This document shows positions 6,316-34,087 of a DNA stretch of 64,000 bases, in pieces. Source of the DNA: a phage; sequence record PZ445487.1. One strand, 5' to 3'. Made by a program: the position numbers and the translations under genes. Under the pieces are notes generated by a model. It worked only from the letters and a program-made list of their open reading frames with translations. It was not told the origin of the DNA and searched no databases. How positions within the stretch are numbered: the first letter of the stretch is position 1; each line of letters opens with the position of its first letter.

Positions 6316-6398
6316 ACGCTTTATTCAATAATATTTGTTAGGTAAGCTGTAGTCCTCTTGTAGTGAAACATTGTAAACAACTAACTGGAGTAATCCGA

Positions 6399-6677
6399 AT
6401 GAACCGTACTGATTTTATTGCTCACATCGCCCAGACTCAGGGTATGACCAAAGGCGAAGCTGAGAAAATCGTTGCATCTTTTATCAATGGCGTGAAAACT
6501 GCAGTCGCGGCTGGCCAATCTGTCCAATTCGTAGGCTTCGGCGCGTTCGAAGTTAAACATCAGGAAGCGCGCACTGGCCGCAACCCGCTGAACGGACAAC
6601 AGATCCAGATCGAAGCGAAAAATGTAGTTAAATTCAAAGTCGGTGAAGGTCTGAAAGCTGCTGCCAACGGCCAGTAA
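6399..6677 (+). CDS. HU/IHF-family histone-like DNA-binding protein
   Basis: Internal ATG of ORF 6363..6677; motifs GFGAFEV and RTGRNP..G typical of HU beta-arm. Confidence 0.75.
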   Translation: MNRTDFIAHIAQTQGMTKGEAEKIVASFINGVKTAVAAGQSVQFVGFGAFEVKHQEARTGRNPLNGQQIQIEAKNVVKFKVGEGLKAAANGQ

Positions 6678-14920: not shown

Positions 14921-15538
14921 ATGACGATGACAACGTTGAAGGCCATGGCCTTGTCCGTGACCTTTACCATTGCCAGCGGGAGTGTGCACGCTTCCCAAAG
15001 TACCACCCAATGTGATTACGAATTTTCTGATCAACAACTTTCAACCATGGCCACAGCCTATCACATAGGCAAACAACAAGACCTTGGTTTCACCCTCGCC
15101 GCGATATCATGGAGGGAAAGCCGCGCCGGAGAAGATGTTGTATCCATGCGGAATAACCTGAAATCGGCTAACATGGGGGCATTTCAAAATCGCGTCCAAA
15201 CCGTCGGGAAACGGGAGGGATGCAAAACACAGAAGTGTTACGCCAATGTCGCGATCAAATTACTGGTCAATCAAGAATATGCTGCCAATGCTGCCCTTGA
15301 TGAAATGAATTTCTGGCTAGAATATCACAACCAAAACATTCGCAAATCCCTTTCCTCTTACAATGCTGGGTTCAATCGTAACCAGAAATCCAATTCTTAT
15401 GCAGCCGACGTCGTGAAGAAGGCTAAATATCTTCAACGATGTGTGTCTTTCAAAAGCATGGCAATAAACCCAAAGGTCGACCCAGGAGTGATCGCCATGA
15501 ATAAGCGCACGATTGAGAAACTCAAGAGGACCAGATAA
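14921..15538 (+). CDS. secreted lytic-transglycosylase-like protein (putative SLT domain)
   Basis: Signal peptide; AISWRESRAG...ANMGAFQ resembles SLT ES...GLMQ motifs. Confidence 0.45.
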   Translation: MTMTTLKAMALSVTFTIASGSVHASQSTTQCDYEFSDQQLSTMATAYHIGKQQDLGFTLAAISWRESRAGEDVVSMRNNLKSANMGAFQNRVQTVGKREGCKTQKCYANVAIKLLVNQEYAANAALDEMNFWLEYHNQNIRKSLSSYNAGFNRNQKSNSYAADVVKKAKYLQRCVSFKSMAINPKVDPGVIAMNKRTIEKLKRTR

Positions 15539-16176
15539 TGAATATCACTCCATCTCAGACCGGATATGAACACATAATGGTGTTTCTGGCTATTCAGGGC
15601 GCGAAGGAAGGGATCATTACTTCAGAATATTCCGGTACAATGCGCCTTGCGGATTATGTCGCGCCGGAAGCATTCATCAAGAAATGCATCGACGCTTGGT
15701 GCCTTTATGCACTCGGCACGTATCCATCCCCTCCTGCTGGTGAGTTATTGTTTACCATACCGACTCCGGCAACTGGTGACACAGACGCGATATTCGCCGA
15801 TATGCTGTCAAAGGGTTATCTGACATATGACAGTGCTCACAGCGTGTATGATTTTTCTGCGCTGAATCGTATCTTCGGATTCACCATAACTTCTGAAGCG
15901 AATATTCCTGATTATGGAATACTAGCATGGGGCGTCGACGGTTTGGGGGCAACATATGCATCTTCGGATGTCGGTCCTGTGTTGATAGACCCAGGGGTGA
16001 CGATGGAGCAATACATGTCACAATTCCCTCAGCATAATGTTACCGGAAGCGACATCATTATTGTCTATCCTGGTTCTAATGCGCTACCCCGTTTGGTCAC
16101 GGGTTGGCAGTCACAGTTGAAGGACATTGTCTCTGGAATCAGGTTCCATATTCCTGTTGTCAATCCAACACCTTAA
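15538..16176 (+). CDS. hypothetical protein
   Basis: ORF track; ATGA-type coupling to upstream gene. Confidence 0.5.
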   Translation: MNITPSQTGYEHIMVFLAIQGAKEGIITSEYSGTMRLADYVAPEAFIKKCIDAWCLYALGTYPSPPAGELLFTIPTPATGDTDAIFADMLSKGYLTYDSAHSVYDFSALNRIFGFTITSEANIPDYGILAWGVDGLGATYASSDVGPVLIDPGVTMEQYMSQFPQHNVTGSDIIIVYPGSNALPRLVTGWQSQLKDIVSGIRFHIPVVNPTP

Positions 16177-16204
16177 AATATTCAATAAAAGGGGCAAAAG
16201 CCCC

Positions 16205-16233
16205 TTTACTTCTTCAATAACCCACGTATAATT
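16205..16233 (+). promoter_or_regulatory. early promoter (TTTACT-N16/17-TATAAT)
   Basis: Follows hairpin 16190-16205; TATAAT at 16227-16232. Confidence 0.5.
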
Positions 16234-16258
16234 CTAAACATAAGCAGTACGACACCAA

Positions 16259-16283
16259 CTTGAAAAGCAGGAACTACATTATG
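16259..16283 (+). repeat. conserved early 5' leader motif (copy)
   Basis: CTTGAAAAGCAGGAACTACATTATG. Confidence 0.55.
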
Positions 16284-16556
16284 AAAATCATCCTCGACGC
16301 ATATATCCGTTACGGCAGCAAATGGTTGATGGCCAAAGTTTACGACGGTGAAGAATTAGTCCACGCCCAAACCGCCCCTTCTGAACAATTGCGTGAAATT
16401 ATGAAACGCGATTTTCCTACTGCTGAAATGATTGAACCTGCCAACCAAACCGAAGTTGACAAAGAATGGGAACGCGAATGGAGTCCGGCGGCGTTGGCAC
16501 AATTTGATAAGAATTACAACAATCGCCAAAACGCGTCTCGCCCGTTTCGTCGTTAA
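16281..16556 (+). CDS. hypothetical protein
   Basis: ATG at end of conserved leader 16259-16283; early promoter 16205-16233. Confidence 0.5.
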   Translation: MKIILDAYIRYGSKWLMAKVYDGEELVHAQTAPSEQLREIMKRDFPTAEMIEPANQTEVDKEWEREWSPAALAQFDKNYNNRQNASRPFRR

Positions 16557-16621
16557 GAAGCACCCCTTTCTTTTCGCTAATTAAGGGAAACCGCACCGAT
16601 TTTATAATCAGGAGAATTACA

Positions 16622-19009
16622 ATGGCCATCCCATCTTTCTTGAACTTTCTTGAAGAGTCTAAACAATTAGACGAAGCGTTTAACTCATCCCCGTATGAAT
16701 TGACATTCGGCAAGAAGAACGCTGGTGACATTTTCTTCACATTTGTTGATGAAGACGAAAAAGAATTCCGTATTCAATTCTATACCCCACAAGGTCTAGG
16801 CAAGAATGTTCGCCAAGTCTTTATCGGTCAGAAGCGTGGTTCCACATATCCCGATGCCATCGGTCGTTTCAAGAATCCGATGCGTGTTATCGCATCCATG
16901 ATTGAAGCAACAAAGCAATTCATGGCGACGCCTTTGGGGAAAACCATTGACGGCTTTGCAATTAACTTCTCCAAGAAAGCATTGGAGCGTGGTGTTACCC
17001 TCCTGCCGAAGATTATCCGTCAGTCCGGCCTGAAGCAAAAGCTCAATGTCATGGACCTGACGTATACCCCTATCCCTGATCGTGCATTCGTATGGGTTGT
17101 GCGTAAAGGCAAGGATCCTGCTCAGGTATTCGATGGTCCGAAAATGAAAGGCGTGACTTGGGACGACCCAGACAAAGTCGGTGACGTTCCTGACCAGGCT
17201 GCTCGTGACGCCGCACTACAAGGTGACATGGATGATTTGAGCCAATCCATAAATGCCGATTCTCGCTGGATTCTGACCAAAGCTGATCATACTCAGCCTA
17301 TGCTGGTCTGGTCTGGTAAAGAACGTGGGCGGACTATTACCGCCAATATCGCACCTCACGCGAATGAACCTGGTGTGTATGCTGGTAGTATCATGAACGA
17401 GAAACGGATCCGCGCTCAATCCCCAGACGCTATTGTACGCCAACTGGGATTACCGCAGATCCCTGTGAATATTCTGAATGATTTCACCAAGCAGTCGTCC
17501 ATCTTCTGGAAAGAGATGACGGGGGATTCTGGAAAAATAGACATGCAGACTTTGCCAAAAACAGGATCTGTGGATGACTTACGAAATCAGGGTTATATTG
17601 CTCGCCTTCTGGGGATTGTAGACACATATGCTCCACAACAGGTCGGTATGTATGCAGGTGAGAAACTAACACGAATCGGCGCGGGCAAATATCGTACTTC
17701 GGGTGGTCTGGACATTCAGGTTTATTTCTGGGGAATTGTCAACGGAAAACTTTCTGTAGAAGTGGTTTCTGATTTATCTGGCAATGAACAGCTGATGCTG
17801 GAAGGCGACGTGAAAAACGCTGCTTTTGAAATCGTCAGTGCGATATCCCGTGCTGCTGATTCTCAGTTCAACGGTGAAGTGGAATGTCGTGTTGTTCCGA
17901 TCAACGGTGCCCCATACCCGATTCAAAAGGTTTCCCGTTCTCAGGGTTATTCTTATGTCGATTGTATTTCGTTTACTTTGAAGATCGCCGATGCATTGTT
18001 AAATCGATTTACTCTGGGTAAGGCAGTCAAACTCGATCTGATAAAAGAGTTCCCTCGAACGACGTTTATTGTTCGTTATGACTGGCGCAGCAAAGATACT
18101 CTGATGGTCCAGTCTTCTGATGGGAAGACTATCTTCGGCGAAATCAACACAAATTCCAGTGATAACGCTGTCATCACTGCGAACCTGAAAGCCCCAAGCA
18201 ATGCGAAGATATTTGGTGAAACCGTTCATGGGTTCTCTGTGGCTTGGGACTTCCAGTTCCCTGCGGGTAGCCAGCTGCAAGCCGCACGGTTCGTTACGAA
18301 CGTGACTTACGACTTCGATCGTAATAAGGCCAACATCACGACCATGCTGACAGAAAATGGCCGAAATGTAGTCAATAGCAGCGGATATGACATTCAGTTA
18401 TCTGTCAAGTCTGTGCAAGATGCATTGAATGAGACTTCACAACGCCTGAAAGACGCTGCGGCTCAATTGAGCCATCTTGGTTCATCAAACTATAACCCGA
18501 ACAAGCTGTTCCTGAATGATATCACCGTCAGTAAGTTTGGTGCAATTATGTTCCAAGACAAAGATCTGGCACAGTCCAAAAACCGCACGGCAGTCATTGA
18601 TGCTTTGGCTCGGGCGAAAGATCAGGTCGCTGGTGGTAAGAATGCAGGCGATCTGGCCACCTATGCCGGATCCATTCGTGATAGCGCTCCTAATGGACGA
18701 GATCTGGATTGGCAGGTATACACAGCCAGTAATGGTACAGTTCTGAATGTTGCCTGGGATATCACTTTCCGTCGCAATACGACCGAAGGAGCATATCGTG
18801 AATTCAAGGATCAGATCAACCGTGCCAACCAATACCTGCAAACGGTATACAACGACGCGAAATCTAAAGGCTATAATCCTACCGAGCCAAATCTCATGAC
18901 TCTTGAACGCGCTCGCCAATCCGACGAATGGGCTATGAGTAATGGTGATAGTGCATACAGTGAATATGAACAATCGCTGGGTGGTAATCTTCAGATTAGT
19001 CTGAAATAA
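16622..19009 (+). CDS. large hypothetical protein (shares domain with 19061-19606)
   Basis: ORF track, 795 aa; RBS AGGAGAA; internal motif SPDAIVRQLGLPQIPVNILNDF. Confidence 0.6.
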   Translation: MAIPSFLNFLEESKQLDEAFNSSPYELTFGKKNAGDIFFTFVDEDEKEFRIQFYTPQGLGKNVRQVFIGQKRGSTYPDAIGRFKNPMRVIASMIEATKQFMATPLGKTIDGFAINFSKKALERGVTLLPKIIRQSGLKQKLNVMDLTYTPIPDRAFVWVVRKGKDPAQVFDGPKMKGVTWDDPDKVGDVPDQAARDAALQGDMDDLSQSINADSRWILTKADHTQPMLVWSGKERGRTITANIAPHANEPGVYAGSIMNEKRIRAQSPDAIVRQLGLPQIPVNILNDFTKQSSIFWKEMTGDSGKIDMQTLPKTGSVDDLRNQGYIARLLGIVDTYAPQQVGMYAGEKLTRIGAGKYRTSGGLDIQVYFWGIVNGKLSVEVVSDLSGNEQLMLEGDVKNAAFEIVSAISRAADSQFNGEVECRVVPINGAPYPIQKVSRSQGYSYVDCISFTLKIADALLNRFTLGKAVKLDLIKEFPRTTFIVRYDWRSKDTLMVQSSDGKTIFGEINTNSSDNAVITANLKAPSNAKIFGETVHGFSVAWDFQFPAGSQLQAARFVTNVTYDFDRNKANITTMLTENGRNVVNSSGYDIQLSVKSVQDALNETSQRLKDAAAQLSHLGSSNYNPNKLFLNDITVSKFGAIMFQDKDLAQSKNRTAVIDALARAKDQVAGGKNAGDLATYAGSIRDSAPNGRDLDWQVYTASNGTVLNVAWDITFRRNTTEGAYREFKDQINRANQYLQTVYNDAKSKGYNPTEPNLMTLERARQSDEWAMSNGDSAYSEYEQSLGGNLQISLK

Positions 19010-19060
19010 GTCATAGCCCCTTCGGGGGCTAAATACATCAAAATCCTTAGGAGATCCACG

Positions 19061-19606
19061 ATGAAACCGTTTATCGAATATTTTAAAGAACAAGCTCAAC
19101 AACCGCAAACTCATGGCGGCATACAAGGCAAAAGTGTAACCATCACCAAACAGGCCGACGGAACCCAATGGTGTACTGGTGCCACCGTGACCCAGATCAC
19201 TCCAGATAATCAGGCCGACATCTATAATCTGGAATTGACTAATGGCAACACCATCAAAGTGAAGCTAACTCCAAACCAGACCCACGGCATTACCCAAGGC
19301 CAAGAAGTTGTTGCCGTCCATGATGGTTTTGAATTTTTCTTCGGCAAGTCAGCTGACAAAGGTCAGGTTACTGAAGCGGAAGGCTGGCGTTTCGTCGGTG
19401 ACCGTGGCGCTCATATTCTGATGTATGACGCAAAAGTTGGCGGTGCCTCCACTATCCTTCGCAGTCCAACAGATCGAACCAAATTTGTTGGTGGTCTCAT
19501 CAACGGTAGAAAAATTTTGGGTAATTCCCCAGAAGAACTGGCGGCAAAATTAGGTCTTCCAAAAATTCCTGATAATTTATTAAAATCGTTTTTTGGTAAA
19601 AAGTGA
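19061..19606 (+). CDS. hypothetical protein with C-terminal LGLPKIPDNLL motif
   Basis: ORF track; RBS TAGGAG; C-terminal ~70 aa alignable to residues ~225-295 of the 795-aa protein. Confidence 0.55.
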   Translation: MKPFIEYFKEQAQQPQTHGGIQGKSVTITKQADGTQWCTGATVTQITPDNQADIYNLELTNGNTIKVKLTPNQTHGITQGQEVVAVHDGFEFFFGKSADKGQVTEAEGWRFVGDRGAHILMYDAKVGGASTILRSPTDRTKFVGGLINGRKILGNSPEELAAKLGLPKIPDNLLKSFFGKK

Positions 19607-19618
19607 TTATAAAATACA

Positions 19619-19648
19619 ATCCCCCTAAATACAGGGGGATTTTCTTTT
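19619..19648 (+). terminator. rho-independent terminator
   Basis: Hairpin ATCCCCCT-AAATACA-GGGGGAT followed by TTTCTTTTT. Confidence 0.65.
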
Positions 19649-19662
19649 TAGGGGTAAATATC

Positions 19663-20016
19663 ATGGTCAATGCGAGTATATTCATCAACCGTGGACTGCT
19701 TGCTATAGCCCACTCCCATGCCCTCCACTTCGTTACAACGTCCTATGCCAAGCACAAGGCACTCGGGGAGTTCTACGGGGAACTGGAGGACTTGCTGGAT
19801 ACCTTCACAGAGGCATATATCGGCGCGGGTGGTGTATATGTCCCAGGGTTTGAGAATATTAAACTGTACAACCCAGATCCTATATCGTATGTCAACAGTG
19901 TCGTTATCGACGTAAACGGAATTTATGGTCAATGCGACAGCCATCTTCAAAATACGCTTGATGAAATCAAAACTTTGTGCTATCAAACGATTTACAAACT
20001 GAAGCAATTGTCCTAA
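19663..20016 (+). CDS. hypothetical protein
   Basis: Internal ATG of ORF 19603..20016 downstream of terminator 19619-19648. Confidence 0.45.
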   Translation: MVNASIFINRGLLAIAHSHALHFVTTSYAKHKALGEFYGELEDLLDTFTEAYIGAGGVYVPGFENIKLYNPDPISYVNSVVIDVNGIYGQCDSHLQNTLDEIKTLCYQTIYKLKQLS

Positions 20017-20079
20017 CTCAATAGGATCATCGTCAGGTTATAATTTTGCCCATTCGTCATCAATAGGATACAGATAACA

Positions 20080-20697
20080 ATGGGCAAAATCTTTATACCT
20101 TCTCACTCAGAAGGTTGTCAAATCGCTGCAAAATTTCTACACAAACAAATGAATTGTGGTGCTGTGTTCGTAGAACCAAATTCATTCGATAATCGTGAAT
20201 CCCCTGACGCCATCGGGTTCAGACCTGGGGGTTGTTCTATATTAATGGAAGTTAAAGTCTCCCGCGCCGACTTCCTGACAGACAAAAAGAAACCTCATCG
20301 CATGAATCCTTCCATAGGCATGGGAGCATATCGTTTCTATGTTTGCCCAGCAGATGTTATTAAAATTGAAGACCTCCCTCCCAAATGGGGTTTGTTGTAC
20401 TTCACCCCTAGAAAATCTTTGAAGCCCGTTCACGTTCCGAATATGCAATATTCCTCTTTGTCTTCACCGGAACATTATGCATCATATTTGTCTAAATCTT
20501 TGGGCAAAAGAAGTCCTACAGATATCCCTCCTTATCTATTAGGGTACAAACAGATGCTGGAAGAATTTGCCCACTTTGATCGCAATCAGGTTGCGGAACA
20601 AAATATTCTGTATGGGGCTTGGCGACAGCTTTGCATAGCTCAAAGTCGCGGGGTGGATTATAATGTGACAGAAGTGTTCCAGAGGCCAAATATCTAA
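20080..20697 (+). CDS. PD-(D/E)xK-fold nuclease-like protein (putative)
   Basis: Motif SPDAIGF...ILMEVKV consistent with PD...E.K restriction-endonuclease-like core. Confidence 0.4.
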   Translation: MGKIFIPSHSEGCQIAAKFLHKQMNCGAVFVEPNSFDNRESPDAIGFRPGGCSILMEVKVSRADFLTDKKKPHRMNPSIGMGAYRFYVCPADVIKIEDLPPKWGLLYFTPRKSLKPVHVPNMQYSSLSSPEHYASYLSKSLGKRSPTDIPPYLLGYKQMLEEFAHFDRNQVAEQNILYGAWRQLCIAQSRGVDYNVTEVFQRPNI

Positions 20698-34038: not shown

Positions 34039-34087
34039 TCCGGTCTAAATACCCATAACACAATGAAACTTCGTTATGGGTATTTTT

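Follow-up and report, generated by a model that had tools for sequence, protein, structure and literature searches.

Why do two adjacent phage proteins of very different size carry the same small segment, and what are these proteins for? The question is raised by orf111 (795 aa) and orf109 (181 aa), which lie in a 64,000-nt stretch of phage DNA (record PZ445487.1, hereafter the window). A sequence-only reading of this DNA had located both open reading frames (ORFs) correctly and had reported the similarity between them. Window positions 16000-20100 are 100% identical, in reverse orientation, to Escherichia phage CBA120 (NC_016570; Kuttervirus, Ackermannviridae), in whose record orf111 is annotated as "hypothetical protein; possible fusion protein." The shared segment was confirmed as a real homologous domain in orf111 and orf109. 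Comparison among relatives indicates that it is a mobile cassette swapped between these genes, and the two genes probably encode late virion-packaged proteins located inside the CBA120 head, like the internal proteins and Alt of phage T4.

BLASTP gave an ungapped alignment (39% identity, E 7e-8) between residues 253-288 of orf111 and 142-177 of orf109, and the 22-residue motif reported as common to both proteins was found inside this 36-aa core (orf111 267-288, orf109 156-177). The Smith-Waterman score of the core was 84 and was reached by none of 1,500 shuffled sequences (mean 36, SD 5, maximum 72). The sequence-only reading had also extended the similarity to the approximately 50 residues before the core. 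This part did not stand in pairwise comparison alone (score 17, equaled by 1,711 of 2,000 shuffles), but it was recovered by profile: a hidden Markov model (HMM) built from 10 large-protein homologues only aligned with orf109 residues 103-177 (profile positions 9-88), the conserved Trp included, and scored orf109 at E 3e-7 when all 755 ORFs of the window were searched. The two copies were bridged across the full W...F span by May_s2, a 142-aa protein of Klebsiella phage May (z score 17.5 with orf109 and 9.1 with orf111). An alignment of 10 sequences was collinear across 76 residues, with two small gaps and no variation at W, G, N, L, P, P, and F. Overall identity in this alignment was 22-40%, and the two CBA120 copies were 26% identical to each other. 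When the whole CBA120 genome was scanned in six frames with the domain HMM (1,777 ORFs), there were exactly two matches, orf111 and orf109. Kinship of the orf109 N-terminal domain (N-domain) with the shared domain was ruled out (z 1.6).

The genes are adjacent and their best-matching stretch is short, which would suit a recent duplication or gene conversion within CBA120 that carries no functional meaning. Against this, the identity between the CBA120 copies is low across the domain, and the closest relative of the orf109 copy is not the orf111 copy but the free-standing domain of May_s2 (39-42% identity). Each copy also has orthologues of its own in other genera. The pattern of divergence and the separate orthologues indicate that separate, old recombination events brought each copy, and a recent exchange is extremely improbable.

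Modeled alone with AlphaFold2, the orf109 copy was compact, with five strands followed by two helices (predicted local distance difference test score, pLDDT, 88.6; predicted template-modeling score, pTM, 0.77) and with LGLPxIP as the loop between the two helices. Residues 215-299 of the full-length orf111 model showed the same order of elements at lower model quality. The shared domain is predicted from these models to be a small, basic, autonomously folding unit of approximately 75 residues. A Foldseek search of predicted viral structures returned the domain itself, May_s2 (template-modeling score, TM, 0.83), and the large proteins of LIMEstone1, RC-2014, and Ag3 (TM 0.61-0.85), with no significant match outside the Ackermannviridae.

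No informative family was found for orf111 or orf109 in Pfam, PHROGs, or NCBIfam; the PDB gave no sequence match to the orf111 profile or to orf109, and no Foldseek match to the full orf111 model at E ≤ 1e-3. An exhaustive profile search of 1.8 billion representative proteins, made with the full-length orf111-family alignment, did not match the shared domain alone outside the family; in a set of this size, a 75-residue domain is significant only if the relative is close. The LPD3 family (PF18798) matched below its gathering score (E 0.031, 14.9 bits vs. a cut-off of 27), and TOBE (PF03459) matched orf109 residues 41-86 weakly (E 0.018, 15.7 bits vs. a cut-off of 22.3). A molybdate-binding/TOBE domain has been proposed for the small protein (PMC10892097). 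Weak matches to GNAT acetyltransferases (SpeG; probability 0.9-0.97, TM about 0.4) recurred when Foldseek was run with the orf111 model, which is of low confidence.

The cassette behavior is evident from close relatives. In the large protein, the slot directly after the N-domain (about residues 190-310) differs between them: it holds the shared domain in CBA120, Sajous1, Klebsiella, Ag3-type, LIMEstone-type, and Bue1 phages, holds unrelated inserts in Vi01, Mutine, and LPST94, and is empty in May. By tblastn, roughly 149 phage records carry the shared domain in the large protein. The orf109 N-domain (residues 1-105) was conserved in 277 records, 58 of which covered at least 80% of the query and thus included the CBA120-type C-terminus. 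With the 76-residue domain as sole query, the orf109-type copy was found in 51 records at an identity of at least 80%. Both copies are present in CBA120, only the large-protein copy in Sajous1, only the small-protein copy in FrontPhageNews and S115, and neither in Vi01.

Four forms were observed after the conserved sequence ..GQVTE↓A of orf109 relatives (the arrow marks a cut or predicted cut). The commonest has an unrelated domain (YAQELANMDK...), followed by a separate 79-aa gene with a targeting sequence of its own; the CBA120 form has the shared domain; the third has the mature part of the 79-aa protein, fused in-frame from the same start residue (z 21-28); and the fourth has no further domain, P0146 ending right behind TE. 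In May and about 20 other records, the shared domain has a gene of its own, in which it immediately follows the targeting sequence MRGFQDFLTE↓AKQVGWRL.... Being fused behind TE↓A is equivalent to being encoded as a separate gene behind ...TE↓A, which suggests that VTE↓A is a protease site; if it is, both ways of encoding would yield the same mature domains. A short microhomology links the DNA of the junction (GTT ACT GAA GC) to the DNA where the downstream gene's targeting sequence ends (ACA GAA GC). A relationship between the C-terminal tail of May_s2 and the 79-aa protein was considered and ruled out (z 0.8).

The large gene is split into two or three ORFs in the annotation of Ag3 (L005 2501-4880) and LIMEstone1 (L015 4416-6012). 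In phiD3, which belongs to the species of LIMEstone1, it is one intact ORF of 531 aa, and both halves of the LIMEstone1 large protein have been seen by mass spectrometry. Sequencing frameshifts in the older Ag3 and LIMEstone1 records are probable.

Both N-termini had been likened to the capsid-targeting sequences of T4, and this comparison held. T4 IPII and IPIII begin with MKTYQEFIAE↓A, orf109 begins with MKPFIEYFKE, and orf111 begins with (MA)IPSFLNFLEE. Behind the orf109 homologue, Ag3, LIMEstone-type phages, and Sajous1 encode 79-aa proteins with the starts MKGFKDFLAE↓A, MKGFQDFLLKE↓A, and MKGFPDFLKE↓A, respectively. In T4 IPIII, ten N-terminal residues are enough for packaging; positions 4 and 7 are used in targeting, and 8 and 10 in processing (PMC9026906). 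Each of the four is kept here. A pattern with an aromatic residue at position 4, Phe or Tyr at 7, a hydrophobic residue at 8, and Glu at 10 is present in both proteins, and a scan of the 64-kb window with it matched no other real ORF, only one additional internal ATG in another frame. Elsewhere in the CBA120 genome, this loose pattern was matched best by orf223 (MKTFGEFLTE; 65 aa, record positions 136922-137119, L013 8621-8818, outside the window) and orf007 (MKSFQDFLED; 73 aa, record positions 6316-6537, L014 6316-6537, adjoining an Ig-domain [Hoc-like] structural gene); the other matches were internal ATGs or weaker. Judged by this pattern, orf223 and orf007 are likely to be additional packaged internal proteins.

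The machinery that such sequences would use is encoded by the phage. The prohead protease gene is orf190 (Peptidase_S77, the gp21 family; E 3.6e-28) and the scaffold gene is orf188 (T4_CASP, gp22-type; E 1.8e-45). In the major capsid protein of CBA120, the Gp23 domain begins at residue 61, so that a long propeptide is implied. The likeness to T4 internal proteins comprises the N-terminal pattern of approximately 10 residues (MKTYQEFIAE vs. MKPFIEYFKE and MKGFKDFLAE), a genome with a gp21-family protease and a gp22-type scaffold, small basic mature products, presence in virions, and loci that vary between close relatives. Unlike in T4, sequence similarity ends at the targeting peptide, and orf109 is not a single small protein but a precursor of two domains, with a cleavage junction predicted between them.

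A second link was found between orf111 and T4 Alt. The orf111 family has 268 members of 689-986 aa, all Ackermannviridae-like, in which residues 1-190 are nearly invariant and the remainder is mosaic; D17, E18, A19, F20, and N21 are invariant. Tests against T4 Alt as a single sequence were marginal (BLASTP, E 0.58; HMM, E 0.009; hhalign, P 0.005), and the homology was settled by the use of an Alt-family profile. When 76 N-domains were compared with 10 Straboviridae Alt N-termini, hhalign gave a probability of 95.8% (E 7e-9, 159 columns; N-domain positions 6-168 vs. Alt 2-178), and reversed and column-shuffled controls gave 1.4% or less. The aligned region begins at the LxE cleavage site, which is paired with ITE-6 of Alt. 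In T4, gp21 cleaves Alt at ITE-6 and LTE-619 (PMC5694885); the orf111 equivalent of ITE-6 is LDE18↓A, invariant in the family. The comparison with Alt in the sequence-only reading thus proved closer than that reading had supposed; given this homology, its denial of any resemblance to a known structural protein is not quite true.

The enzymatic domain for which it had proposed a search, ADP-ribosyltransferase (ART) or other, was not detectable in orf111 with Pfam or NCBIfam, and BLASTP of orf111 against Alt residues 400-682 gave no match. Because the ART domain (PF03496) was undetected, these comparisons indicate that orf111 shares a carrier domain with Alt but is not an Alt enzyme. In the exhaustive profile search, the N-domain lay at the beginning of proteins that range in length over 280-1409 aa and are unrelated in their C-terminal parts, always behind (L/I)-x-E↓A-F-(N/D)-S. 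It was combined with an Alt-like ART domain in four relatives (blastp, E 2e-14; PF03496 in 4 of 63), with an anthrax-lethal-factor-like (ATLF) metalloprotease in one, and with a DinI-like domain in another. Alt and orf111 are alike in a homologous N-terminal domain of about 170 residues, placed right after an L/I-x-E site, and in being large proteins packaged in the head, as is probable for orf111; some orf111 relatives have the full Alt architecture including ART. In contrast, orf111 lacks ART, and its 600 C-terminal residues (variable cassette, central region, and "TFRRNT" domain) are unrelated to Alt. Alt is present in about 40 copies (PMC5694885), whereas the Sajous1 spectral count of the orf111 homologue suggests abundance.

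Two adjacent paralogues with the Alt-like N-domain were observed in Vibrio phage K369 (L008 2424-4637, 4992-8408). The paralogue of 737 aa has a HEMGH zinc-metalloprotease motif, and its cluster is the one that matches Pfam ATLF. The 202-aa protein downstream also has a start that resembles a capsid-targeting sequence (MPSFKCIAEA).

The C-terminal domain of orf111 (TFRRNT..GAY) is also free-standing elsewhere: about 60 representatives of 110-300 aa match only that domain. Many of the free-standing "TFRRNT..GAF" proteins begin with MKLT.L.EMA.., another L-x-E motif, which suggests that they may be a second widespread family of protease-processed head proteins.

Published mass spectrometry shows homologues of both proteins in virions, and all of these proteomic data come from relatives of CBA120. 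In LIMEstone1, ORF078, ORF080, ORF081, ORF082, and ORF085 form a cluster listed as "unknown structural proteins" and were confirmed as structural (PMC3296691, Table 2), with 55% coverage and 23 peptides for ORF081 (PMC3296691); the authors considered in 2012 that no functional prediction was possible for this cluster. We mapped ORF078 to a Dps-like protein, ORF080 to the orf109 homologue, ORF081 and ORF082 to the halves of the orf111 homologue, and ORF085 to the orf113 homologue. In Sajous1, gp214 is 97% identical to orf111 and gp215 is the orf109 homologue. CsCl-purified Sajous1 particles yielded 196 spectra for gp214 (among the five best-represented proteins), 32 for gp215, 20 for gp216, and 10 for gp217 (PMC10892097, Table 6). 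The Vi01 homologues carry the name "phage associated protein." The sequence-only reading would have been refuted by absence from virions together with a shared segment that fails a shuffling test, and these data show that it is not refuted on those terms.

In the mechanism that we propose, each protein would be made with a short N-terminal targeting peptide and would dock on the gp22-type scaffolding core as the prohead assembles. The gp21-type protease (orf190) would cut after Glu in hydrophobic-x-Glu sites and remove the targeting peptide. A cut after E10 of orf109 would give the new N-terminal peptide QAQQPQTHGGIQGK; orf111 would be cut after E12, giving SKQLDEAFNSSPYELTFGK, after E18, giving AFNSSPYELTFGK, or at both sites, and its uncut N-terminus would give QLDEAFNSSPYELTFGK. 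The mature proteins would remain in the DNA-filled head and would probably enter the cell with the DNA. Within this scheme, orf111 is an Alt N-domain that carries, in place of ART, a string of other domains, the first of them in the variable slot. Cleavage of orf109 at VTE↓A would free an acidic N-domain of approximately 10 kDa and the basic shared domain of 8.2 kDa. Cleavage at the named sites, the location in the head interior, ejection, and a role against host defense are all inferred.

Several observations weigh against parts of this account. The virion proteomics does not distinguish head from tail. Val at P3 of VTE↓A is not the commonest residue in T4 sites, which have Leu or Ile. No obvious Glu sites flank the orf111 copy of the shared domain, which therefore probably stays in the large protein. 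The full-length orf111 model is poor (mean pLDDT 59), and the sequence and fold searches described yield no functional lead for the shared domain. Finally, CTAAATAC, the possible late-promoter element of orf109, occurs 3 times in the window vs. 1.6 expected, which is not above chance.

The same lack of head/tail separation would also suit a reading of both proteins as structural components of the tail or neck, with the shared domain as a common docking module to one virion partner, like the N-terminal anchors of tailspikes. The large protein is named "tail completion protein" or "tail fiber protein" in some records and in Table 6 of PMC10892097, which also speaks against a place in the head, and docking modules are shared among the tailspikes of these phages (PMC8432352). 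However, no similarity to tail families (gp3, gp15, fiber) was found by sequence or fold in the Pfam, PHROGs, NCBIfam, and PDB searches, and the gp3-type and gp15-type tail completion genes of CBA120 are elsewhere (orf169 and orf202). The N-termini match the head-targeting peptide of T4. Homology links the N-domain to that of Alt, a head-packaged protein, and in relatives this domain is joined to toxin-like cargo. The shared domain is also dispensable in close relatives, Vi01 having neither copy, which would be odd for a docking module. Together, these points make a tail or neck role improbable.

For proteins packaged in the head, as we prefer, our best guess is that the shared domain binds packaged DNA or a host factor just after injection, possibly against host defense. 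Its strict motif, basic charge, and patchy distribution would fit either an early-infection effector or a DNA-associated protein. T4 IPI inhibits the GmrSD restriction enzyme. Tentatively, the shared domain may be a new injected effector, such as an inhibitor of host defense or a protector of the incoming hypermodified DNA. Ackermannviridae would deliver it in two ways, as part of an abundant Alt-like carrier and as a free protein of approximately 8 kDa that the prohead protease releases from a two-domain precursor at the conserved TE↓A junction, and the locus would be a cassette system with cargo exchanged by recombination at microhomologies in protease sites and targeting sequences. This full scheme is a possibility to which we give rather low confidence.

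A different role that departs from the preferred account only at its last, inferred step is that of a packing or DNA-condensing filler, basic and histone-like, with copy number and position varying neutrally. Like the T4 internal proteins, both copies are basic (isoelectric point, pI, about 10), no enzymatic signature was found in Pfam or NCBIfam, and phages with zero, one, and two copies all exist. Nevertheless, LGLPxIP and the W, G, and N residues are strictly kept at 22-40% identity, which points to a specific interaction rather than to bulk charge, and a domain that some near-identical genomes have and others lack follows the pattern of conflict genes. We consider a filler unlikely.

Two other systems resemble the proposed one. 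The paralogues of the ejection and inner-body proteins of phiKZ and SPN3US are also internal to the head, with a gp21-related protease that cuts after Glu and with shared N-terminal propeptides (PMC5694885); they differ in the cleavage motif (A/S/G-x-E), in having no sequence relation to the proteins described here, and in their much larger virion scale. Polymorphic toxins and polyvalent proteins also join a conserved N-terminal carrier to interchangeable C-terminal modules (ART, ATLF-like metalloprotease, and DinI-like in the relatives of orf111). They differ in that the LPD3 match is subthreshold and in that delivery here would be by capsid packaging.

Ackermannviridae are in wide use for biocontrol and phage therapy, and about one in two of their genes lacks an assigned function. 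No paper connecting the family to capsid-targeting sequences, internal head proteins, or Alt-like carriers was found in a literature search, and internal or ejected proteins are unmentioned in a 2024 review of the family. The mechanism proposed is the known one of T4, and the modular arrangement would be an unusual twist on it. A cluster of virion proteins would thereby gain a concrete, testable role, head-packaged and protease-processed, that ties it to the Alt and internal-protein paradigm of T4. The N-terminal domain of Alt would be identified as a widespread carrier of varied cargo (ART, metalloprotease, and unknown domains), the hypervariable slot and the small basic domain would be candidates for host-specific takeover or anti-defense functions, and the targeting sequence might serve as a natural tag for loading foreign proteins into Ackermannviridae phages.

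Table 1. Features of the orf111 and orf109 locus, in window coordinates
Feature	Position	Strand	Description
orf111 / CBA120_gp086	16622..19009	+	795 aa; probable Alt-family virion-packaged protein without ART domain
Predicted 18-residue propeptide MAIPSFLNFLEESKQLDE	16622..16675	+	FLNFLEE, like a capsid-targeting sequence, and gp21-type LDE↓A site
Alt-like N-terminal domain	16676..17191	+	orf111 residues 19-190; carries variable cargo in other phages
Shared domain, copy 1	17258..17512	+	orf111 residues 213-297; in hypervariable cassette slot; pI about 10
22-residue motif SPDAIVRQLGLPQIPVNILNDF	17420..17485	+	orf111 residues 267-288; helix, LGLPxIP loop, helix
Conserved C-terminal domain (TFRRNT..GAY)	18644..19006	+	About residues 675-795 of orf111
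CTAAATAC	19029..19036	+	25 nt upstream of orf109 start codon, directly after hairpin; possible late-promoter element
orf109 / CBA120_gp085	19061..19606	+	181 aa; probable small virion-packaged protein; conserved N-domain fused to shared domain
Predicted capsid-targeting sequence MKPFIEYFKE	19061..19090	+	orf109 start, followed by ↓Q; compare T4 IPII/IPIII
orf109 conserved N-domain	19091..19375	+	Residues 11-105, ending GQVTE↓A; acidic, pI 5.5
Junction V-T-E↓A	19367..19378	+	Domain-swap point; predicted prohead-protease site
Shared domain, copy 2	19376..19603	+	orf109 residues 106-181; 8.2 kDa, pI 10.1

The late promoter of the ViI-like phages was not identified in the CBA120 genome paper, and the LIMEstone1 record marks a putative late promoter at the corresponding position. 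Judged by its position, CTAAATAC could be a candidate for this promoter. It was observed upstream of both orf109 (19014-19036) and orf108 (19618-19641), in or beside the GC-rich hairpins GGGGCTAAATAC and CCCCCTAAATACAGGGGG, with a third copy at 34045. The T4 late promoter TATAAATA was rejected, being absent near orf111 and orf109.

The two genes are flanked by the gp46/gp47 recombination nuclease genes and a primase gene, and the same cluster also holds orf114, orf113, orf112, and orf108. The product of orf108 (19663-20016) is a Dps/ferritin-like protein of the DUF5856 family, annotated as "starvation-inducible transcriptional regulator"; its homologues were found in virions (LIMEstone1 ORF078 and Sajous1 gp217), and its N-terminus has no pattern like a capsid-targeting sequence. 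Such a pattern is also absent from the N-terminus of orf113 (15538-16176; DUF7270, Pfam E 5e-118), which corresponds to ORF085 of LIMEstone1, confirmed in virions. In orf114 (14921-15538), the N-terminus resembles a signal peptide and Pfam recognizes a lytic transglycosylase SLT domain (E 7.6e-5); the label "RegB endoribonuclease" given to its homologues in several records looks like a misannotation.

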